Below, piece after piece: positions 1 through 62,204 of a DNA stretch of 64,000 nt (positions within the stretch are counted from its first letter, which is position 1; every line of letters starts with the position of its first letter). Below the pieces are notes generated by a model. That model was not told the origin of the DNA. It saw only the letters and a list, made by a program, of their open reading frames with translations, and searched no databases. The translations under genes and the position numbers were made by a program. The DNA lies in IMG/VR virus record IMGVR_UViG_3300029305_001467, positions 1 through 64,000 of that record. One strand, 5' to 3'. This DNA is from a virus (taxonomy: Duplodnaviria; Caudoviricetes).

Positions 1-3000
1 CTTATTCGTTCTGCAAATGGTGCTGTAATAAGCGAGACCCAAAAGGCTGCCGCATTAAAGGCTAGTACTGTTGCTGCAAAAGCACAAGCCGTAGCATTAA
101 AAGGTGTAGCAATTGCTGGTAACATGTTGTTAGGCATTGGCGTATCAATGCTTATTAGTTCTGTTATTAAAGGTATTGATAATTACATTCACCGTATAGA
201 TAACGCCAGAGAAGCTATTACGGAAATTTCTTCTGAAATAAAAGAAGTGAATGATACATTTAATAATACGAGCAAAACAGTTTCAGATATTTCTAGACGT
301 TTTGCCCAATTATCCCAAGGTGTTAATCAAATCACTGGGTCGAATAAATCTTTAAATACTGAAGAATATGAAGAGTTTTTATCTTTAAATAATCAGATTG
401 CAGAACTCTTCCCTTCTCTTCCGAAGATTTATAACGAGAATGGGCAAGCAATTGTTCAGCTTACTGGTGATGTAGATGGCATTGTCGGTTCTTTGCAACA
501 CCTAGTAGATGTGGAACGTGATTTGGCAAACCAGCAACTCGCCGATAAAATGCCGGAGTTATTTTCTAATCTTAAGATTAGTTCTAAAGATTATGATAAA
601 GACTTAACATACCTTCAAAACAAAAAAGATGCGATGACTAATGTTGTCGGAGATTTTAATAAAGATATGTTAAAGGCTGCTATCAACAGCAAAGAAACAT
701 TTAAGGTACATGGAGATAATGCTGCACAAATTGTAGAGTTATCAAAGTTGTATGACTATGCTTTTGAAGCCTTAGACATTAGCTTACTCAGAACTTCTCC
801 AAACGAGTTTGCAGTTAACGGTTTGGATAAATACAAGATAATTGATTTACAGTCCTCAGAAGATATAGACGAAGAGATAGAACGTGCATTTAATTATGCC
901 GTTGATAAGTATGGGGAAGAATACAACTTATCATATGATAAGGTGGTCTCTCAAATTACTACAATCAATAATAGTAAGAGTTCAGAATATGATAACTTCA
1001 AGCAATCCTTATTTGCATGGTTAAATACAAATTCTGGCTCCGGATATAGCATGATGACCGATAATCTTCAAGCAAGTATACAGACGATTATTGGATCTTT
1101 AGATTTTGGATCTCTGATGAAAGAGTATACTACGCCAGAAGAATTCCAAAACTATATTTTAAATCATATTGTATATCCAATTAGAGATGATGGCTCTGTG
1201 CAAGATGCAATCAACAGCTTATTTTCAACTGATTTCTCAAAGATGTCTTTTAAAGATGCTGATGCAATGGTAAATGAGTTAATTAACGTAATTGCAAAAG
1301 CATTAGATAGAGACCCATTAGAATTAAAAGTTTCTCTTGGATTTGGTAGTTACGAAGATATAAAATCTTCAATGGCTGATATTGCTAAAAGAAAAGTGAA
1401 TGCACCTGACGGTTATTTCTTTGATTACAATCAAGAAGCAGAATATAATCGTATAAAGGATGAATTGCAAGAATATGCTCAACAATATTCTATTGATACA
1501 CAAGAAGAAATCGCATTGTTTAATAAAGCAATGCAAGATGCAGAGGATAATGTTGAAAAAGCAATTGAGATTTATCTTGCTAAAAAAGAAGAAAATAGAC
1601 AGCTTCTTATCACAGAAGAATCTCTCAAGCAAGCTAAAACCTACCGTGACGAACTCGGCAAGCTCTATGATGCTCTCGCACTACTCCGTTCCGGTAACGC
1701 TACCGCTTCTGACATTTATGGTTTTGTAGAGGAGTTTCCTGGATTATCTGAGTATGTTGGAGACCTTGACCTTCTCGAAGAGAAGATTCAGGAATTAGTC
1801 AATGAAAGACTTGTTTCATTAAGAGAGCAGTTTAATGGAGCTATAAGTGAAGAGGCGTTAAAACGTTTAGCTGAATACTCTGTAAAACAAGAAGCTGTTG
1901 TTAGTTCTATTGATGCTACCACGGATGCTCTTAACACACTTGTTTCTGCATATAAAAATGTCTCTGATGCAATGGAACAGTATAACCAAAGTGGATTTAT
2001 TTCATTAGAGTTGCTTGAATCAATTATGTCTATGAAGCCAGAATATCTAGGATCTTTATTAGATGAATGGAATAATATAGAAAACGCAACCGATGCATAT
2101 AAAGCTTATATGAAAGTTCGGTTGATGGACTATATTACAACCGCAAGACAGCAATCCAATGATGACCGTAGGGAATTTCAAGCACAGTTTCACGAAGATG
2201 GTGATAGGGATAAGTACGATAAAGCAGTAGAAGCTTCTATTGATGCTTTAGCTGCAAAAGAAAAGTTTGTAGTTGGTATATTAGAGAATTTTGATGAATG
2301 GTTTGGGAATTTAACATCTGCTACTTCTTCTACAGAAAACACCTTTGACTGGATTGAAGTAAAAATCAATAACATCAAAGAGGCTATTGAAGAACTCAAA
2401 GAGACCGCAGACGACCCATTTGTTTCTTGGGCTGATAGAGGTTCTGCGCTTCAAGATGTAATTGACCGTCTTGAAAGTGATAAAGCTGATTACTTAAAGG
2501 CGTATGATGCTTATGTAGCAGAGATGGGAAAAGTTGGTCTTGGTCAAAATTATATTGACCTAATTGCTGGCGATAAGGATAAATTCAATATTGATACCTT
2601 CAAGGATGACCCTAATTACGATAAGATTCAAAAGTATCAAGAGTTATATGAGAAGGCTCAAGAAGCAAAGAAACTTGCAGATGGTACGGAAGACGAATTA
2701 AATTCCGGCATCCAAGATAACTTCGACCTTATCATCTCCGAGTTTGATTCTAAGCTCTCTCACTATGAAAATACTGCGAATCTGATTGAATCTAAATTAG
2801 CAAATGCAGAATCTAAAGGTTATATTGCTACACAGCAGTATTATCAAACTTTAAGAGGTATTGAAGAAGCAAAAAGAGTTGAGCTAAAGAACCAGTTAGA
2901 TGACCTCACACAAGCGTTTAATGAATCTGGATTAGAACCGGATTCTGAAGGGTGGTCTGAGCTTGTAAATAAGATTGAGGAAACAGAGCTTGCACTTCAA

Positions 3001-3468
3001 GAGTCTACCAATGCAATGCAAGATTTTAATAATGAAATCCGTCAGATAGATTGGGATTTATTTGATTTTGCTCGTGACCAAGAATCCAAACTTATGAACG
3101 AAGCCGACTTCATGATTGATTTACTTGACTCCGCTAAGATGTTTAGCGAAGCAAGTGAAATCACGGCTGAAGGCATGGCTACTATGGGACTTCATGCTCA
3201 GAACTACAATGCTTACCTTGAACAGTCTATTGATTATGCTAAAGAATTGGCACGTATTCAAGAAGAAGAATTGTCAGAAAATCCATATGATACAGATGCG
3301 TTAGAGAGATATAATTTGATGCTTGAGAAACGCCAAGAAAGCATACTTTCCGCTGAAGCAGAGAAGGAAGCTATCATCGACTTGGTGAGCGAGGGTATTG
3401 AGCTACAAAAAGAGAGTTTTGATGAACTTATAAGTCAATATACCGAAGCACTTGATATTCAAAAAGAT
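1..3468 (+). CDS. Tail tape measure protein, exon 1 (5' end outside window)
   Basis: Frame is open from base 1. Long Ala/Glu/Gln-rich helical protein upstream of Dit/Tal. Ends ...ALDIQKD at the intron 5' splice site. Confidence 0.9.
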
Positions 3469-5020
3469 TAAATAAATACATTTAGTCCGCTATATAACGA
3501 AAGTATATAGTGTATTGTTTTGAATTGCTGGAAACCCCTAAAGATATTTAAACTACAACATAGAGATGAAATATGCTCAAGTGTGAATGTTTGAAAATTA
3601 AATATATAGAAGACAGAACATCTAGTTTTACTAGGTGTTTTTATTTTGTCTAAAAATGGGAAATCAGCAGCCAAGTTCCGAACAGGAAAAGGTTCAACGA
3701 CCAGAGCTGAAATGCTCGTAGAGGGAAGTCCCTCGAAGTGGAACACACCTAAGTTTGTATATATAAATATGGTGAATAATATGGTCTGCACTTTGGTGAA
3801 AGCCAAAGAAAATTTACTTCTGTTAAGGAGAAGTAAAATCTATAGGGTTTAACGAACCTTATAAATAAAAAATTGTTTAGAAAAACTCAAGATAAGGGGG
3901 TGAAATATGGGTAAAAGAAAAACACATGAAGAGTATGTAGGAGAATTAAAAATAAAAAATCCTAACGTTGAAGTTTTAGGAATATATATAAATAATTATA
4001 CGCCTATATTACATTGTTGCAAAAAACATAATGTTAAGTGGAAAGCGTTTCCAGCTAGTATTTTACGGGGATGTGGGTGCAATGAATGCGGAAAAGAAAA
4101 AATAGGTTCTTCTCTTAGCAAGACGCATAAGCAATATGTAGAAGAATTGCATAATGTCAATTGTAATATTGTTGCTGTCGAAGAATATCGAGGCGCAAAC
4201 ACTCCAATATTACATAAATGTTTAATAGACGATTATGAATGGATGGCACGACCTGCGAATATTTTGTTTGGGAATGGTTGTCCAAAATGCGCAAATAAAT
4301 ATTCTATGACTCCTCAAGAATACAATGATAAATTAAAAGAAGTTAATCCAACTGTTGTTGCAATAGATGAGTTTATTAATATGAAAACTCCTATTGTACA
4401 CCGTTGTTTAAAACATAATATACAATGGTTGGTAACTCCATCAAGCACGTTACAAGGTTGTGGATGTTGGGAGTGTGGAAAAGAAAAAATAGGTAATCTA
4501 TTTAGAAGAACTCATGAAGAATATGTAAAAAAATTAGCAATAACTAATAAAGATATTATTGTTATTGAAGAATATATCAATGCAAATACTCCTATATTAC
4601 ATAAGTGTTTAATAGATGGTTGTGAATGGTGTGCAACTCCAGGACATATTCTTAGTGGTTGTGGTTGTCCTCAATGTTGTAAAAGTAAAGGTGAAAAAGA
4701 GATTGAGTCGTGGTTAAACAATAACGAAATTGAATATATACCTCAATATAGATTTACTGATTGTCGTGATAATAAACCTTTGCCTTTTGATTTTTATTTA
4801 CCTATGTATAATTGTTGTATCGAATACGATGGTGGACAACATTATAGACCCATTGATTATTTTGGCGGACAAGAATCCTTTGAAATAACAGTAAAACATG
4901 ACAATATGAAAAATGAATATTGTAAAAACAATGGTATACCTCTTCTTCGTATACCTTATTTTAAAAACATAGAAGAAGAATTGAACAATTTTTTATTTAT
5001 TTAATATAGTAACATAATGG
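3469..5020 (+). ncRNA. Group I intron (IA-like) in the tape measure gene
   Basis: P1 GATTAAAT/ATTTAGTC with U3468-G wobble. P AATTGCTGGAAA 3523-3534, Q AATCAGCAGCC 3662-3672, R GTTCAACGACCA 3692-3703, S AATATGGTCT 3778-3787. P7 GACCA/TGGTC, P7.1/P7.2 hairpins, P9 CTTTGGT-GAAA-GCCAAAG, terminal G5020. Splicing restores QKD|LYDYQRK in frame. Confidence 0.93.
3907..5004 (+). CDS. Intron-encoded homing endonuclease (4 Zn-ribbon repeats + Vsr/DUF559-like nuclease domain)
   Basis: Four repeats of T-H/P-E-E-Y...TPILHKC...W...P..L.G.GCxxC. C-terminal SKGEKEI...LPFDFYLP...IEYDGGQHY. Own SD (AAGGGGGTGA). Confidence 0.85.
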   Translation: MGKRKTHEEYVGELKIKNPNVEVLGIYINNYTPILHCCKKHNVKWKAFPASILRGCGCNECGKEKIGSSLSKTHKQYVEELHNVNCNIVAVEEYRGANTPILHKCLIDDYEWMARPANILFGNGCPKCANKYSMTPQEYNDKLKEVNPTVVAIDEFINMKTPIVHRCLKHNIQWLVTPSSTLQGCGCWECGKEKIGNLFRRTHEEYVKKLAITNKDIIVIEEYINANTPILHKCLIDGCEWCATPGHILSGCGCPQCCKSKGEKEIESWLNNNEIEYIPQYRFTDCRDNKPLPFDFYLPMYNCCIEYDGGQHYRPIDYFGGQESFEITVKHDNMKNEYCKNNGIPLLRIPYFKNIEEELNNFLFI

Positions 5021-6361
5021 TTATATGATTATCAAAGAAAGAATGCACAACAAGTTAAAAAGATTAGTTCCTTACAGAAACAGCTTGCTGCCTATAGCAA
5101 TGATACGTCTGACGAAGCTCGTGCAAAAGTTCAACAACTCAAAGTCCAGCTCAATGATGAGAAAGGTAATTTAGAGTCTGATAATTATGACAGATATATT
5201 TCCGATCAAAAAGAAATTTTATCTACTATTTCTGAGGATTACAATACAGCTTTAGATGCATATCTTGACGATACCGCAAAGGTAATATCTGACTCTATAG
5301 ATGCTGCTAATAGAAATGCTTCTAGCATTGGTAAAACAGTAACCAAAGCAACCAATGATGTTGGCTATGATGTTAGATATGCTTGGAATGATGAAAAAGG
5401 AGTGCTTGCTACTGAATTTAGTGGTGTTAAGGAGAATATCCAAACCAGTAACGATGTTCTTGGTGATATTAAAGACAATACCACTGGACTTATAGACGCA
5501 CAAAAAGCCGCAATCACAGAATCATTAAGTGGTTTAACTGATGAGAATAGTACCTTAAGCACAAGTATCAAGGGTATTCTTGAAGCTGTTCAAAGTATTG
5601 ATGGAAAGATGAACGGTCTTGGTAGTGGAGCTAATAACTCTAACGGAGAAACCGGTGGCGAAAAAGATCCAATCCCTAAGCCTACTACTCCTACCGGTGG
5701 CAAAAAAGAACCTGAGTCACCTAAAGATGATGACAGCTTTAGTAAAGGCGCAGTTCTTAAGAATGTAACAGGTAAGTGGTACGCTTCTTCTGATGGAACT
5801 GGCGCGAGTGGTTCTACTACTCCAGAGAAAGGTGCAGATGAATGGGTAATTGATAAGATTAACGATGGTTCGAAATATCCTTATCACATTATGAGTTATA
5901 AGAATGGTAAATTCACCGGCTCTGGTTGGGTAAAGAAAAATCAGCTTGCGTATAAGAACGGTACGAAGAAAGTAGGTTATGATCAAGTTGCATGGACGCA
6001 AGAGAATGGATTGGAATACATTATCAGACCTTCTGATGGCGCTATTCTTCATCCGGTTGCACAAGGGGATATGGTTCTTAATGCCGAAGCATCTAAACGT
6101 CTTTGGGAAGTATCTAACAACCCTATGCAGTTTATTAAGGATAATATGTCTACATCAATTCCTAGCACACCTACTAATAATGGAAATAACAATGTTGAAA
6201 ACAACATTCAGATGACCATCACTCTTCCGGGTGTATCAAATTATCAGGAATTTGTAACCAGATTACAATCTGATTCGAAATTTGAAAAGATGATTGTAGA
6301 TGTAACATCCAGTGCATTAACCGGTAATAATTCATTGTCGAAATACAGACATAAGTTTTAA
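5021..6361 (+). CDS. Tail tape measure protein, exon 2
   Basis: Frame is open from 5021 (LYDYQRKNAQQVKKISSLQKQLAAYSND...) into track ORF 5402-6361. C-terminal AWTQENGLEYIIRPSDGAIL is typical of these TMP C-termini. Confidence 0.9.
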   Translation, partial: LYDYQRKNAQQVKKISSLQKQLAAYSNDTSDEARAKVQQLKVQLNDEKGNLESDNYDRYISDQKEILSTISEDYNTALDAYLDDTAKVISDSIDAANRNASSIGKTVTKATNDVGYDVRYAWNDEKGVLATEFSGVKENIQTSNDVLGDIKDNTTGLIDAQKAAITESLSGLTDENSTLSTSIKGILEAVQSIDGKMNGLGSGANNSNGETGGEKDPIPKPTTPTGGKKEPESPKDDDSFSKGAVLKNVTGKWYASSDGTGASGSTTPEKGADEWVIDKINDGSKYPYHIMSYKNGKFTGSGWVKKNQLAYKNGTKKVGYDQVAWTQENGLEYIIRPSDGAILHPVAQGDMVLNAEASKRLWEVSNNPMQFIKDNMSTSIPSTPTNNGNNNVENNIQMTITLPGVSNYQEFVTRLQSDSKFEKMIVDVTSSALTGNNSLSKYRHKF

Positions 6362-7504: not shown

Positions 7505-10500
7505 ATGGGAATAAAATTGGACTTTGATTCACACGGTAACCCTCAAGCCCCTACCTTTGTATTAGCAACAAGAAATGGGACAAAGCTCGGTCAGATTAGT
7601 AATATTACCGATGAACGCTTAAAAGTTGGGATGAAAGACCCAGAGGGTTCTCTTACCGTACATAAGTATGAAGGTAAAGAGGTTATTCCTTATTGGGATG
7701 ACATCAAGGATTTTAAACTTATGTGGTGTAAAGAATCTGATGTGTGGTTTGAGATTAAGATTAATTCTACCCTCTCCGATGAAATAACTAAGCAGGTATC
7801 TTTACAGAGACTAGGGGAAGCAGAATTATCTCAGATTAAAGTATATGGTATGGAAGTAAATACCGAGGATGATATTCTTCGAGATGATTATGTTCAGCCG
7901 ACTTTATTTTACAATGAAGACAAGCCTACCGCTTCTCTCTTACATAGATTACTAGAGAAAGCACCGCATTATAGAATTAGACATGTTGATGAGCATTTAA
8001 AGGGTATTCAAAAGATTTTCTCGTTCAACGACAGGAGCTTAAAAGAATGCTTTGATGAGATTGAAGAATCTATGGACATCCTGTTTGTGTTCGAATCCAA
8101 GTCAAAAGAAGACGGAACACCTGACAGAACGATAGACGTATACGATCTTAAGAGTTATTGTAAGGACTGTGGTGCGAGGGGAAAGTTTGTAGATAAATGT
8201 TTAAATTGTTGTAGCGAAGACATCACTGAAGGATATGGTGTTGACACTACTATTTTTGTATCTCGTGAGGACTTGGGTAATGAGATTAACATTACAGTAA
8301 ATGCTGATGAGGTAAAGAACTGTTACCGTCTCGAAGGCGGTGATGAATTAATGACTGCTACCATCCGTAACTGTAATCCGAATGGTACGTCCTATATTTG
8401 GGACTTTTCAGAAGTTACAAAGAGAGATATGGATGCCAGTCTGGTTGAACTGATTGAGAGATACAAAGAAGATTACAACTATTATAAGGATTCTTATGTA
8501 TCAGACCTCTCTTCTGTTCCGGTATCTAGTTATAATGTCCTGGTTAATAAATACAACGCCACGAGCGAAGATTTAAAAGTGTCTAAGATTACAAGTCTTG
8601 TTGGTTACGCTCCTATTATGGAACACTACTATGACGCTATTGACCTTGCATTATATATTGAGTCCGGACTGTTACCAAATATTAATTTACAAGATACTAA
8701 TGCCCAGACCGAAGCTGCAAAGCTCACTACTTCTGCTTTATCTCCAGTTGCCGTTGTATCCAAGAAGTATATTACATTAGCCAATGCATCTACCGCTGTA
8801 TTGAATGCGGCTAAGATTGCATCTGACCCAAGATATCAGATTAAGGTGAACCAAGCAAGTCTTAATGGAACTACTTGGACAGGTAATTTTACGGTAACGA
8901 ACTATAGTGATGAGAAGGATACTTATGTATCTCCTACTATCAATGTAACGGTAAATGATGATTATACGAAATACATTGACCAAAAGCTTAAGAAGACTTT
9001 GTATAATAATACCAGAGGTAAATATGGAAGTATCACTCAGATGATAGATATGAATGTATCTACTTTCCAGAGTGAATTGAATAAGTATAATCTTACAGCT
9101 CTTAAATCATTTAATACTTGCTTTACAGAGTGTGTGAAGCTGCTTAGTGAACAGGGTATTGATAAGGAAGATGCAGATTTATATAACTCTGTGTATTTGC
9201 CAGTATATAACAAGATTGGTTATATTCAAGCCGAGATTGCAGAACGTGAAAATGAACTGGCAGTAGTAAACAATGTACAATCTAAGCTTTTAACTCTGAA
9301 ACAATATATAAATGATAAGTTGAATTTAGAAAAGTATCTCGGTACTGATAATTGGCTAGACTTCTGTGCTTACCGCAGAGAAGAAACTTTCTCTAACGGT
9401 AATTATATATCTGATTATCTGAGTAATAAAGAACTCTTCTCTCGTGCGGAAGAATTTACAGAAATGGCTGAGTACGAAATAAGCAAAGCTTCTAATTATA
9501 AGAATGAAATCTCTTCTACTCTGAGAAATTTACTTACTGTAAAAGAGTTTGCACCATTGGTTGATTATTTTGAATGTGGTAACTGGATTAGAGTTATTGA
9601 TGACGATGGAGAAGTTTATAAGCTTCGATTGATTGATTATGAAGTGAATTTTGAAAATCTCAACTCTCTCACCGTTACATTTAGTGATGTGGTAAGAACT
9701 ATTGATGGCTTAGAACCAGTACGAGAAATTCTTGTAAAGAGTTCTGATATCATCAATAACTATAACGCCGCATTGAATAAGACTAATAGTAATTTTGAAT
9801 CAATCAATGATAGTATGTCTGATATGATAACTGATTCAATGATTAATTCCGACCTCATCTTCGATTCTTCCGACGATTTAAAGGAAGATATTACGGAAAC
9901 TGTTGTAAGAATAGATAAGACGGATACTTCTCTTCGCTTATATGTCGGAGAGGTGCAGACCGGATTAAGTTCTCAGATAGAATTGACTGCAAGGCAAATT
10001 AGATCTGAAGTAAGTGATTTAAATAATTCATTATCTTCTCAGATTACACAAACTGCAAGTAGTATTAGACAAGAAGTAAATGATAGTGTTAACGGATTAA
10101 GTGCACAGATAGCGTTAAAGATTGATAAGAGTAAACTCGCTTCAGAGATAAATCTTATTGCTGATAATATTGTGTTATCTGGTAATACGACTTTTACAAA
10201 CGGTAGTAAAATACAGACATTGATTTCCAATGCACAATCTACTGCCAACTCCGCAGTATCGGCTGCTAGTTCTGCACAATCAACTGCAAATTCCGCTAGT
10301 TCTAGTGCTAGTTCGGTGTCTAGTGCTTTAGCCGCATATAAAAAAGATTGTGAGGATGGTAAAACAACCATTAGTGGTGGGTGTATTACTACTGGACTTA
10401 TATCTGCAAAATGTATAAGTGCTGATTATTTTACCACACAAGCGGAAAATGGCTCTGCTGGTTGGACGATAAAAAAACATTCTAGTGCCGATGACGCTTC

Positions 10501-24997: not shown

Positions 24998-26164
24998 TCA
25001 TCCGACACCCCTCATTACTCTGAAAAACTCCTCATTTACAAAATCATCCTCTACGCTAATATACACTCTTGCTGTGGTATTATAAGAACCATGTCCAACA
25101 ATCTTCTGTAATGCATGAGGGCTGATATTAAGTTCTGCCAATCTACTACAGAAGGTATGACGACAAGTATGACAAGTCACATTTGGAAGCTTGTCTTCGT
25201 GAGTATTGTTATAGCTTCTTGTAACTCTCTTTGCGTACTCATTCAATCTCGCTGGTAAAACCGGTAAACCGCTTCTTGTGTGAATGACAAATCCAGAATA
25301 CCCATCAACTTCCGTCTTAAACTTATAGGCATCAAAATATGTTTCCGCCTTTAAATCTTTTAACAGTTCATATAAATCATCTGATATAGGAACTCTTCTA
25401 ACACCTGCTTCTGTTTTGGTCGTATCAATATGATAGGTTGTTCTGCTTTTGTCATCCCCTAAAATAAACTGATGATCAACATTGATATATCTTTCTTTAA
25501 GATTAATATCATCCCATGTTAATCCAGTAACCTCTCCTACTCTCATACCTGTTAAGAACATAAGTTTGAAAGCAAGTAAATAATTTTTCCCTCCAAACAT
25601 GTTTTCAGCCGTTGTAAGAAAATCATCTGTTTCTCTTTTTGTTAAACCATCTTTTTTGTTGGTCTTCATATATGGTTCAATACAGCTATAAGCATAATTC
25701 CTTCTGATTAAATCATCTTCAAATGCCATGTTCAATGCCCCAGAAATATACTTATGAACACATTTTATTGTACCATTAGAATAACCTCCATCACTTAATT
25801 CTTTGTAAAATTTCGCAATATCTGATTTAACTATAGTTCTAATTTTCTTTTTGCCAATCCACTTTTTAGAAACCCATCTGTTGTATTCAGAACGATATTT
25901 GTGACGGGTTCTGTCTTTGATATTTGGATTTTGTTCTAGATAACGTTCAAAAAGTTGATTTAGAGTGAAGTCATTGCTGTATATTCCTAGATCAAGATTT
26001 TTACTTATTTCTTTCTCTTTTTTGCGCAATTCATCAAGAGTTTTGGCATATACACACTTTCGTTCACCATCTAAATCATTATAGCGAAACATATAGGTCA
26101 AATCTTTTCTTTGACTTTCACCTTTTACAAGAACCCTTCCTTTGTTATCTTTTCTTCTTTCCAT
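24998..26164 (-). CDS. int: Tyrosine integrase, Tn916 family
   Basis: N-terminal RRKDNKGRVL..GESQRKD arm-binding domain; catalytic TGMRVGE, HTCRHT, GH, VY. Confidence 0.93.
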   Translation of the reverse strand: MERRKDNKGRVLVKGESQRKDLTYMFRYNDLDGERKCVYAKTLDELRKKEKEISKNLDLGIYSNDFTLNQLFERYLEQNPNIKDRTRHKYRSEYNRWVSKKWIGKKKIRTIVKSDIAKFYKELSDGGYSNGTIKCVHKYISGALNMAFEDDLIRRNYAYSCIEPYMKTNKKDGLTKRETDDFLTTAENMFGGKNYLLAFKLMFLTGMRVGEVTGLTWDDINLKERYINVDHQFILGDDKSRTTYHIDTTKTEAGVRRVPISDDLYELLKDLKAETYFDAYKFKTEVDGYSGFVIHTRSGLPVLPARLNEYAKRVTRSYNNTHEDKLPNVTCHTCRHTFCSRLAELNISPHALQKIVGHGSYNTTARVYISVEDDFVNEEFFRVMRGVG

Positions 26165-28290: not shown

Positions 28291-28763
28291 TAATTAATCC
28301 TTTCTGCGAATTGATTATCACTCGCCAAGTTTACTCCCAGAACTTTATCATAATGACTTTTTTGATTTGGGATATAGCGTCCAAACTTAACCACTATATT
28401 TGAAAATACAGAAATAGCTTTTATATAGTCTTGTATCTCTTCTTTGTAATATCCTGTATAAATTACTACATCGTCATCAGATATTTGTCTGAACCGAGAA
28501 ATCAACTCAAATAAATCTCCAAACGAATCAAATGGTTCTAACCCACCACACACTATAGATTTAGTGATATGATTACCAATATATCTTTCAATTACAGAAT
28601 CTACATCTACTTCAATGTTTTTTGCAGTAGCAAGTGTGCTATTTTGACACACTTGCATACCGCATTCTCTATCACATTTCCAACAACACTTAGGAAATAT
28701 GATAAACATGGAGGGTTTTTTGTAGTTTATGAAATCTTCATCTTGTATTCCTTTTAAAATCAT
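28290..28763 (-). CDS. nrdG: Anaerobic RNR activase (radical SAM)
   Basis: Cys cluster (C.WKC...C....CQN), GGLEP, VIYTGY, KFGRY, LASDNQ; adjacent to nrdD. Confidence 0.88.
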   Translation of the reverse strand: MILKGIQDEDFINYKKPSMFIIFPKCCWKCDRECGMQVCQNSTLATAKNIEVDVDSVIERYIGNHITKSIVCGGLEPFDSFGDLFELISRFRQISDDDVVIYTGYYKEEIQDYIKAISVFSNIVVKFGRYIPNQKSHYDKVLGVNLASDNQFAERIN

Positions 28764-30694
28764 AAAATCCCATCTTTCGAAGCAGCGTCATACCACTGTC
28801 TCTTATCAAATTCATTCTTGCGAATCTTCTGATAGCTACTTGTTGGAACATAGAAACCTACTACTCTACTATAAGTGTCATAGATTGGCTTACCACAATT
28901 CGGGCAATCCTTCGTCCCAATAAAAGCATGTCTATCCTCACAAATACTAATCTTAGTAGTAAATGCAAAGTAAATAACACCCTTGGATGCTACATAGTTC
29001 AACATATCCCACGCAACTTCATCGGTCGGGAATCTGTTCTGAATGTCAATATGTGCGATACATCCACCACCACACTTAGCATCAAACAGAGAACCTAAAC
29101 GACACTTTTCCTGAATAGTACATTTCTCCATAAGCGGAATCCACTGGTTAGAATAAATAAAGTACTTATTCTTCTCGAATAAAAGATTATCTGCTGTACA
29201 AATAACACCGGCACAGTTTTCAGCAGGAATCATTTCTACATTATACTTAAAGTCACATTCATACTCCTTAACAAAGCTATCCTTTACTTCATTAATTACC
29301 TCAAGGATTGAGGTAGCAAACTCAACTGCTTCATCGGAGTAAGACTTATTTCCAAACTCATCCGTATTGATAAGTTCAAATAAATCCATGACTTCGTAAA
29401 TGCCGATGCCACCAATGGTACAGAACTGCTTATCAAATTCTACTGCTCCATCCTGATAATTAGGAAGTAGACCCTTTTCGATGTTTCTCTTCAAAATGTG
29501 TCTCATGGAGTATAAAGCCTTACAATCAAGCATTACTCTATCTCTCAAAATATCAAGATACTTCTTCTTGTTAAACTTACTCTCATAGGCAATTCTTACA
29601 AGGTTAATTGTACTAACACGACAAGAGCCTACGGATAATGCAGTACCACCAATAGAGTTGATGAATGGATTTAACTCAGTGGTATCTGAGAGAAGTCTGC
29701 AACAATTAGACAAAACGCCAACATTATCACTTACAAAGAAGTTAGAATCAGACCACTTTCTGTTGTGGGAAGAACACCATCTTGCAAAATCTTCATCCTG
29801 GAACTTGCCATCCTTGTAAAGTAAACTGTAAGTTAAAATCGGATAAGTAAACATATTATGCTCTCTGATTTCACTTACAACTTCCATGAACACCTTCTGA
29901 CAATCAATTAGCTCTTCAATGCAGTCGATAGCGAATGTTCCATCTGGGAATTCTACTCCACCGAATAATGACTCAAGGTAGCATCTGTCGAAGATGGAAA
30001 TGTTGGTGAAGCTAGACTGATCAATTCTAAGGAATGGCTGATTAAGTCTATAGATAAACTTTTGGAAACACTGTCTCAAATAATAATCAGGAGACTTCAT
30101 ATAATATCCTTCTTCTACATCCTTCTTCCAAAAATAGTATGCCCATACAATTACATTTGGAAGCCCTACTGCGCCTGACTGACGGTTAGATAAGAATGAA
30201 ATAAATTCAATTACATTATCAAAATATGTAGTCAAGTGCTTTGGTGGCTGATGATTGTATCTATTTAAGAAGAACAATCCTTCAGTAGAAAGTCTTGTTA
30301 AATCGTTAGCCCAACAATACGGAAAGTAACTTGCAGTCGCAGAGTCATTGAGATAAAATCCCTTGCTAAACTCCTGTTCTAACCACTGCTTTGCAATTCT
30401 AAGTCCCCACTTCTTCTTCATTTCAAGGAAAATCTTATTAAGACCAAAGAGCTTGTCTGCACTCTTACCCTTTTCCGTCATGAAGCTACGAATATCTCTA
30501 TGGTTTGCATTAGCATTAGGGTCAATGCTAATATCTGCAAGAGTATCCTTTCTAACAAAATTATTAATAAACTCGGAATAATCTAACTGTGATGGATGAA
30601 CACCATTAATGTATTCGAAATCCTCACCATACTTCTTCTTTAAATCTTCAAGGCATCTTTCAAAATCCTTATTTAACTTAATGTTAATCTCCAA
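28760..30694 (-). CDS. nrdD: Class III anaerobic ribonucleotide reductase (no ATP cone)
   Basis: SNCCRL finger loop, IPAE, C-terminal Zn site and glycyl-radical SRVVGFY. Confidence 0.93.
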   Translation of the reverse strand: MEINIKLNKDFERCLEDLKKKYGEDFEYINGVHPSQLDYSEFINNFVRKDTLADISIDPNANANHRDIRSFMTEKGKSADKLFGLNKIFLEMKKKWGLRIAKQWLEQEFSKGFYLNDSATASYFPYCWANDLTRLSTEGLFFLNRYNHQPPKHLTTYFDNVIEFISFLSNRQSGAVGLPNVIVWAYYFWKKDVEEGYYMKSPDYYLRQCFQKFIYRLNQPFLRIDQSSFTNISIFDRCYLESLFGGVEFPDGTFAIDCIEELIDCQKVFMEVVSEIREHNMFTYPILTYSLLYKDGKFQDEDFARWCSSHNRKWSDSNFFVSDNVGVLSNCCRLLSDTTELNPFINSIGGTALSVGSCRVSTINLVRIAYESKFNKKKYLDILRDRVMLDCKALYSMRHILKRNIEKGLLPNYQDGAVEFDKQFCTIGGIGIYEVMDLFELINTDEFGNKSYSDEAVEFATSILEVINEVKDSFVKEYECDFKYNVEMIPAENCAGVICTADNLLFEKNKYFIYSNQWIPLMEKCTIQEKCRLGSLFDAKCGGGCIAHIDIQNRFPTDEVAWDMLNYVASKGVIYFAFTTKISICEDRHAFIGTKDCPNCGKPIYDTYSRVVGFYVPTSSYQKIRKNEFDKRQWYDAASKDGIL

Positions 30695-60510: not shown

Positions 60511-60548
60511 CTTCTACCACCTCTCCTAATGAATTGAAAATTTCATGG

Positions 60549-60770
60549 CTATTCCACCTTTACCTTAATATCGTTTGACAGACCACTTGTAGCCAAAATA
60601 ATCTTTGCTACCTTTTCTGCATTACAATCTCTTATTAATGCTTTTGCTAAATCTAATTCAAAGAATTTTGCTTTGTCATTAAAGCTTTTTATAATAATTC
60701 CATCATATTCTTCTCGATGATTTAGCCATCCTTCAAATTCATCTAAACACTGTCTAATATTCTCAAACAT
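60549..60770 (-). CDS. Hypothetical protein
   Basis: Track ORF. Confidence 0.65.
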   Translation of the reverse strand: MFENIRQCLDEFEGWLNHREEYDGIIIKSFNDKAKFFELDLAKALIRDCNAEKVAKIILATSGLSNDIKVKVE

Positions 60771-60774
60771 TCAA

Positions 60775-61206
60775 TCACCATACCTTATCAAATCTAAATT
60801 CTCCATCTCTAGTGTTATATTCTGCCAATCTAAATCGCCCAGCAGAAACTAATCCTTCTCTAAAGCCATACCTCTTAGCCCACTTCTTATTAATTCTCTT
60901 CTTTCTATGTCTGCGAACTTGAACTGTTCCTTTAACTTTCATATCAAATTCAGGACTTTTATAAACCAAAGGATTATAAAGAATAGCATCTAATACGTCT
61001 TGATCCCATTTTGTTTTTGCTTCAAAAGTAGCTTCAGTAGGTACATGTCCACTCACAGATATAGGTAACTCTTCTTCAGCAGACAACAACGGCATCTCTA
61101 ACACTGCAGCCTGGATGCCATCCATCTTAAAGCTCCGTCCAGTTTCTTTATCTTCAATAGAAACAGAACGGAAAGTGCATTCACCAACATTAAACATTCC
61201 GTACAT
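60775..61206 (-). CDS. Hypothetical protein with RRHRKKRINKKWAKRYG basic motif (possibly tail-tube-like N-terminus)
   Basis: SD GGAGG; see findings. Confidence 0.65.
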   Translation of the reverse strand: MYGMFNVGECTFRSVSIEDKETGRSFKMDGIQAAVLEMPLLSAEEELPISVSGHVPTEATFEAKTKWDQDVLDAILYNPLVYKSPEFDMKVKGTVQVRRHRKKRINKKWAKRYGFREGLVSAGRFRLAEYNTRDGEFRFDKVW

Positions 61207-61233
61207 TATTTATCCTCCGAATTATCTAACTTT

Positions 61234-61611
61234 CTAAAAACTATATGTGTTTTTAATAAAACTCTCTTCTGCCTTCAAAGCATCAATCATTACTCTCTTT
61301 AAATGCTCGTCCGTTACAACATAACAAACGTCATCCGGAACATTGTAATCTGCCAAAAAATAAGTTAATGGATTCATTAAATGTTGCTCAATAACAGCTA
61401 ACTTTGTTTTTGGACTACACATGATTACAGTTGAGTTCTTGTCTGTATACTCTTTAAAATCTTTAATTGCATTGAGAATCTGTTGTGCATTAATAGGCTC
61501 TATAGATTTGTTCGTAACGAAAGTATTGAACAACCATTTATTATCTTCTTTTTCTTGTTTGATTCTTTCTTCATATATTTTTTGATTTACTTTATCAAAA
61601 AGATTATTCAT
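61234..61611 (-). CDS. Hypothetical protein (capsid A-domain-like pattern)
   Basis: ATG after GGAGGTGG; see findings. Confidence 0.65.
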   Translation of the reverse strand: MNNLFDKVNQKIYEERIKQEKEDNKWLFNTFVTNKSIEPINAQQILNAIKDFKEYTDKNSTVIMCSPKTKLAVIEQHLMNPLTYFLADYNVPDDVCYVVTDEHLKRVMIDALKAEESFIKNTYSF

Positions 61612-61864
61612 TAGCCACCTCCGGGAATATCTCAAATTCTACACAAGTTGCCACACGATGAGGATTGTTGTAATCGATATCTACAGGAATGCCCAATATA
61701 GTATTAGGTTCATCCTCATGATCATGATGAGGCACAAATACTCCTTCAGTTAATCGTGCAATTATTTCTTCTCCAAGAATAATTTTATTTGGTCTTATGT
61801 TGTAGTTATATTCCAATGTGTCAATACTGGTACGAAGGGACTTGATAATATCTTCTGCTCTCAT
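61604..61864 (-). CDS. Hypothetical protein (capsid A-domain-like pattern)
   Basis: PNKIILG...TILGIPV. Confidence 0.7.
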   Translation of the reverse strand: MRAEDIIKSLRTSIDTLEYNYNIRPNKIILGEEIIARLTEGVFVPHHDHEDEPNTILGIPVDIDYNNPHRVATCVEFEIFPEVANE

Positions 61865-61888
61865 TAGTTCTCCTTGTTCGATTGTTTC

Positions 61889-62179
61889 TTATCTAATTTC
61901 TACTTCTCCATATGCTAAATCATTATTTTCAAATATTTTATAACCATTATATAATCCGCAACTTCCACCTTTACCAAGAGTAATAAATCTTAAGGCAACT
62001 TCGTTAAGCAGATTAACTTTAACATCATACTTTGATACTTTGTTTGCTATAGAAGCAATAGTATCTTTGCTCATGAAAATATATGGACGAACTTCACCAG
62101 TTACTATAGAATATTCATCAATACCTTTATCTAACTTTTCCAAATCTAGTTCTTTAATTATTGAAAACTTCTTACTCAT
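61889..62179 (-). CDS. Hypothetical protein (capsid A-domain-like pattern)
   Basis: PYIFMS..T...YNGYKI..NNDL.YGEV. Confidence 0.7.
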   Translation of the reverse strand: MSKKFSIIKELDLEKLDKGIDEYSIVTGEVRPYIFMSKDTIASIANKVSKYDVKVNLLNEVALRFITLGKGGSCGLYNGYKIFENNDLAYGEVEIR

Positions 62180-62204
62180 ATAACCTCCTGTTAAAATTGA
62201 TATT

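Follow-up and report, generated by a model that had tools for sequence, protein, structure and literature searches.

Why would a large phage encode, outside its structural genes, small proteins that resemble one isolated domain of a capsid protein? The question is raised by three adjacent minus-strand genes, here called A, B, and C, in a stretch of 64,000 nucleotides (the window), with which one 100.5-kb virus contig in IMG/VR (record IMGVR_UViG_3300029305_001467) begins. An initial annotation had proposed that each gene product is a free copy of the axial domain (A-domain) of the HK97 capsid fold, and the three open reading frames (ORFs) with the peptides it had quoted, at 61889, 61604, and 61234, are present (Table 1). 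The best explanation of the evidence is that each of the three genes encodes its own small, soluble accessory protein and is expressed from the strand of the phage that carries the non-structural (replication/early-side) genes. The A-domain fold that had been claimed for all three was recovered clearly for A, is probable for B, and was recovered only in part for C.

Judging from its predicted structure, A is very probably a stand-alone HK97-fold A-domain. The AlphaFold2 model of A, which was built from a nine-sequence alignment, had a predicted local distance difference test (pLDDT) score of 75.6 and a predicted template modeling (pTM) score of 0.68. It consists of a strand (residues 3 to 6), a helix (13 to 27), a strand (34 to 36), a second helix (38 to 49), a disordered loop (51 to 65), and three further strands (73 to 77, 80 to 84, and 92 to 95). 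In an exhaustive VIA-align structure search of this model against 48,161 PDB representatives, 48 of the 50 top rows were HK97-fold chains, each aligned over its A-domain, and in another search all of the 44 top rows (44/44) were HK97-fold chains. The matches start about half-way along each capsid protein, and the A-domain alignment takes up the whole model (residues 1 to 96). The matched chains (VIA-align values in parentheses) included the SrpI encapsulin 6X8M (6.3), the Mycobacteriophage Douge capsid 8ZDH (6.1), the A-domain encapsulin PF0899, 2PK8 (6.0; root mean square deviation [rmsd], 2.8 Å over 69 residues), residues 239 to 327 of HK97 gp5, 1OHG (5.7; rmsd, 3.4 Å over 75 residues), T4 gp24, 1YUE (5.5), and phage G gp27, 6WKK (4.7). 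A resembles the A-domains of HK97-fold capsids and encapsulins (clan CL0373) in the topology and packing of the model: two helices lie on a four- to five-stranded sheet, the elements follow one another as (strand)-helix-strand-helix-strand-strand-strand, and the whole can be superposed on the A-domains of capsids. The sequence pattern of helix, hydrophobic strand, helix, and then a G-x-P-V-type strand also resembles that of capsid families. As modeled, A would be a non-assembling, free-standing copy of the axial domain in which two helices lie on a five-stranded sheet.

The resemblance to capsid proteins is confined to this domain. A, B, and C (86 to 125 amino acids) all lack the N-arm, E-loop, P-domain, and spine-helix context of HK97-fold capsids, reach no family cut-off, and are encoded in a non-structural region on the strand opposite to the tail genes. 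Without a P-domain, E-loop, or N-arm, they cannot be shell subunits, in agreement with the initial annotation, which had considered them too short to assemble. They also differ from Ccm of SaPIbov5 (PDB 7RWZ), a capsid-fold interference paralogue, in that Ccm has the HK97 fold over its full length and is co-assembled into shells, whereas A, B, and C are single-domain proteins or smaller.

For B, the ESM Atlas contains a model of the exact sequence (pLDDT, 0.64). The 30 nearest structures to this model included PF05065, PF25209, and PF17236 clusters, with template modeling (TM) scores by query of 0.68 to 0.73 over residues 1 to 81, and a DUF2396 cluster was also near (TM score by query, 0.71). 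It therefore seems fairly probable, as far as this model is a guide, that B has the same A-domain fold.

The model of C points less clearly to capsids. It consists of a 32-residue N-terminal helix, a helix at residues 42 to 59, a strand at 61 to 65, a helix at 67 to 75, strands at 83 to 87 and 96 to 98, and a 22-residue C-terminal helix. Despite an AlphaFold2 pLDDT score of 86.4, no significant fold match for C was found in Foldseek PDB, VIA-align wide, BFVD, or pdb_via searches, a result that counts against the assignment of C to the A-domain. The best Foldseek PDB rows were FliH and a V-ATPase stalk (expect [E] value, 0.26), and two capsids were among the weak, non-significant BFVD rows; these were whole-model searches, in which the long helices dominate the matches. 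The core of C has its elements in an order that fits the first half of the A-domain, and the sequence hints described below agree with this. C thus has only a partial likeness to the A-domain, namely, a helix-strand-helix core and two strands, flanked on either side by a long helix, and the proposal that it adopts the A-domain fold is tentative and somewhat doubtful on the predicted structure.

Comparisons of the three families with one another pointed to a core shared by A and C. No similarity among A, B, and C was detected with BLASTP. When profiles were compared with hhalign, A and C had a helix-strand-helix core in common (residues 10 to 49 of A with residues 39 to 78 of C), with a score of 19.7 versus 11.1 ± 1.9 for column shuffles, and none of 100 shuffles reached the observed score; the A-B and B-C profile comparisons were not above column shuffles. 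In MAFFT alignments, the A family matched the B family over the full length. The pattern of helix, hydrophobic strand, and helix that had been noted in all three proteins was thus borne out by the full-length alignment of A on B and by the alignment of the A and C cores.

Sequence searches gave no family assignment. The A, B, and C proteins of the window belonged to no Pfam or PHROG family at default or lax thresholds, and the window proteins themselves had no capsid match. The curated cut-off of a capsid family (Pfam clan CL0373 or PHROG major head) was not reached by any member of the three families, and searches of PDB sequence profiles with A, B, and C yielded nothing relevant. The weak, sub-threshold matches of the A, B, and C families were strikingly often to capsid families. 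Five of the eight B-family members weakly matched phrog_1005, "major head protein," at positions 154 to 190 of 315 (best E value, 0.02, for P0014), and one B-family member also matched phrog_29. The A-family protein P0021 matched phrog_544, "major head protein" (E value, 0.27). The best capsid match of the C family was that of P0026 to PF17236, SU10_MCP (E value, 1.2e-3; 18.9 bits against a cut-off of 24.1), and P0028 matched the same family with an E value of 0.085; at least one of these two SU10_MCP matches is unreliable, because they place the same C-family strand about 25 profile positions apart. The ESM language-model neighbors of C included SrpI encapsulin, P2 capsid, and SU10_MCP clusters at 0.86 to 0.87. 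A complete phage (G001) has both a C homologue and a PF25209-type capsid, and residues 42 to 106 of the C profile aligned with residues 146 to 214 of that capsid (30% identity over 64 columns; E value, 0.057), with a hidden Markov model (HMM) score that 29 of 2,000 shuffled capsids reached. The HMMs of A and B gave no significant match to two PF25209-type capsids.

Another reading is that the resemblance is that of a generic small alpha/beta sandwich or stems from model bias, so that the three proteins would be early ORFan products of an ordinary kind, unconnected with capsids in evolution or function. The chance of this is slim, and it attaches mainly to C. HK97-fold chains are a small minority of the library that was searched, but they made up nearly all of the top rows for A and were all aligned on the same domain; the separate ESM model of B likewise falls among capsids; and even for C three unrelated methods point to capsid families.

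Several features indicate that the three ORFs are genuine genes. Shine-Dalgarno sites are located 6 to 9 nucleotides upstream of each start (AGGAGG at 62189 to 62184 for A, AAGGAGA at 61875 to 61869 for B, and GGAGG at 61622 to 61618 for C); a start of C at a TTG further upstream would give a protein of 133 amino acids. Homologues, which were found only in metagenomes, have the same size as the window proteins, with identities of 40 to 53% and invariant termini in the A family (nine sequences in the alignment), 56 to 92% in the B family (A2; eight sequences), and 23 to 86% in the C family (A6; 12 sequences). The ratios of nonsynonymous to synonymous substitution rates (dN/dS) relative to these relatives were 0.19 to 0.20 for B and 0.24 to 0.25 for C, values by which B and C are under purifying selection. 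With their own Shine-Dalgarno sites, conserved families of constant length, and, for B and C, low dN/dS, these are therefore real, selected genes rather than debris. The 8-nucleotide overlap between the stop codon of B and the start codon of C recurs in related contigs (L007, positions 9254 to 9261, and L008, positions 952 to 959), which suggests translational coupling and possibly a complex of B with C. None of the three proteins had a tblastn match in 50,697 GenBank phage records. An exhaustive HMM search with the C family added three more small homologues; two low-complexity giant proteins that it also matched were taken as spurious.

Each of the three genes is an independent module that is found elsewhere without the others. 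L003 and three IMG/VR phages have C but neither A nor B, L022 has A alone, and in L006 B is paired with a different downstream partner. That partner, a 126-amino-acid protein (L006, positions 5191 to 5571) downstream of a B homologue with 58% identity, has its first ∼21 residues in common with the C-family protein P0024 (16 of 21 identical) and is unrelated over the remainder, which looks like a module swap in which the N-terminal helix was retained. A Tpt1/KptA RNA 2'-phosphotransferase is encoded two genes after the A homologue in L022 (positions 2978 to 3547; E value, 4e-54 to 7KW8), and a HAD_SAK_2 gene is located just before B-C in L008 (positions 150 to 671) and before C in L003 (positions 9267 to 9782).

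These observations also bear on whether A, B, and C might be pieces of one capsid gene that has decayed or been split. Their summed length of 307 amino acids is capsid-like, and A and B share a reading frame, with one TAA and eight codons between them. Such an origin is extremely improbable, and it was rejected because each ORF has its own ribosome binding site and start codon, because each is conserved separately at constant length (40 to 90% identity, with purifying selection) and occurs without the others in other phages, and because A and B both correspond to one capsid domain, not to consecutive segments of a capsid protein. No fused homologue was found among proteins of 0.55 to 1.75 times the query length.

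Free-standing A-domains have been described, in the literature searched, only in cells, as the Family 4 or "A-domain encapsulins" of Andreas and Giessen (DUF1884, PF08967; about 100 amino acids; PDB 2PK8 is PF0899 of Pyrococcus furiosus) (PMC8346489). Hyperthermophilic archaea and a small number of Bacteroidetes encode Family 4 proteins, which have no known function and whose genes are located, in thermophiles, in two-gene operons downstream of hydrogenase, OsmC, GAPDH, or DeoC genes (PMC8346489). Like them, A is a stand-alone A-domain of ∼100 amino acids, and it superposes on 2PK8 as well as on any capsid. However, no match to PF08967 was found at an E value of ≤10 among the members of families A1, A2, and A4, and whereas the Family 4 proteins are cellular and next to enzymes, A, B, and C belong to the accessory genes of a phage of low guanine-plus-cytosine (GC) content and have no fixed enzyme partner. 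No description of phage-encoded free-standing A-domains was found in the literature searched. What is new here, if the models are correct, is an A-domain-only protein, of a kind known from cells, in the accessory region of a phage.

The comparison with Family 4 suggests that the fold could have been retained for another job, with the A-domain redeployed as a small module that binds, or acts as an adaptor for, an enzyme of the phage or of the host and no capsid mimicry involved. A role of this type has been proposed for the cellular Family 4 proteins, which adjoin enzymes, and the RNA-repair-type genes HAD_SAK_2 and Tpt1 are near family members in relatives of the phage. However, no enzyme is a constant neighbor, the neighbors in the window are small ORFs of unknown function, PF08967 is not matched, and the function of Family 4 is itself unproven. 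We consider an enzyme adaptor possible but on the whole unlikely.

The genomic setting is that of a non-structural region. The contig has an estimated CheckV completeness of 62% and a GC content of ∼33%, and the size of this low-GC phage genome is estimated at ∼160 kb. Tail genes (tape measure, tail spike, and lysin) occupy the plus strand at the start of the contig, and from the integrase to the end of the contig all genes are on the minus strand. The minus-strand genes include those for NrdD, a RecD-like helicase, a DNA polymerase, an exonuclease, a DnaB-like helicase, Sak4, and a PAPS-reductase-like protein, beyond which small ORFs extend for tens of kilobases. Genes A, B, and C are among these small ORFs and, given the direction of transcription, upstream of the replication module. 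Their early status is a positional inference only, because it is based on this location and on the strand opposite to the tail genes; a scan for promoters and terminators gave only background levels. The initial annotation had also placed the genes in one cassette with motifs at 60529 to 62191, a proposal that was not upheld, as no bounding repeat or motif was found and the only repeats were short and chance-like.

Table 1. Positions of genes A, B, and C and of other features in the window
Feature	Position	Strand	Basis or remark
Gene A, 96 amino acids	61889-62179	-	ORF and ribosome binding site
Gene B, 86 amino acids	61604-61864	-	ORF and ribosome binding site
Gene C, 125 amino acids from ATG	61234-61611	-	ORF and ribosome binding site
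Overlap of B stop (TAA) with C start (ATG), ATGAATAA, 8 nucleotides	61604-61611	-	Read from sequence
Tail genes (tape measure, tail spike, lysin)	1-24.5 kb	+	
Tape measure	1-3471		Cut by contig start
Tyrosine integrase	24998-26164		
NrdD, anaerobic ribonucleotide reductase	28760-30694	-	

The presence of an integrase and NrdD in a phage with an estimated size of ∼160 kb suggests that this large phage is temperate and that its host is an anaerobe of low GC content. The break inside the tape-measure gene at the start of the contig recurs in other assemblies of the same phage; a gene for an HNH/homing endonuclease (positions 3907 to 5004) directly follows the tape-measure gene, for which no relatives were found in IMG/VR. 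No head genes were detected in a profile search of the contig, from which PF05065, PF17236, and PF25209 are all absent, and the capsid gene of the phage itself is outside the contig. HMM searches found no further paralogues of A, B, or C in the 100.5-kb contig. A 97-amino-acid ORF beyond the window (G000:C1, positions 85714 to 86007, minus strand) had a weak, non-significant match to all three family HMMs (E value, 0.6 to 1) and could be a fourth, diverged member or noise.

What, then, might soluble A-domains do for the phage? The capsomer-forming face of the A-domain was recently reported to be the surface that is gripped by three Avs families (Avs7/8/10-type). A, B, and C may present this face in a soluble, non-assembling form and would thereby occupy a partner that normally grips it. 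The leading candidate for such a partner is a host capsid-sensing immune protein, which would be bound non-productively. We consider an immune-mimic function of this type possible, although on balance unlikely. Known capsid sensors are activated by binding of their target. A decoy that simply titrates the sensor, as the initial annotation had suggested, is therefore problematic, because binding would switch the sensor on; a working mimic would need to bind the sensor without activating it.

The same face could instead be directed at capsids. Mini A-domains might attach to full-length capsid proteins at the A-domain interface, whether those of the phage itself, of a co-infecting phage, or of a satellite, and so cap or poison capsomers; the outcome would be competition against superinfecting phages or satellites, or control of the timing of assembly. 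Both the binding and these outcomes seem rather improbable. A part in the morphogenesis of the phage itself is disfavored by the location of the three genes in a non-structural region, and the contig, which has no head genes, offers no capsid gene for comparison. A broader proposal combines both targets: large phages may carry early, non-assembling copies of the A-domain that block the pockets of Avs7/8/10-type sensors or cap the capsomers of rivals, with B and C acting as a translationally coupled heterodimer. This also appears quite unlikely at present.

Because of the report on Avs recognition of the A-domain face, A, B, and C are nevertheless inexpensive, well-defined candidates with which to test capsid mimicry against capsid sensing or rival capsids. 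If they do block sensors or cap capsomers, they would represent a new class of counter-defense or competition by mimicry of a structural protein. If they do not mimic capsids, A, B, and C would still show that the A-domain can exist as an autonomous folding unit that viruses have reused.
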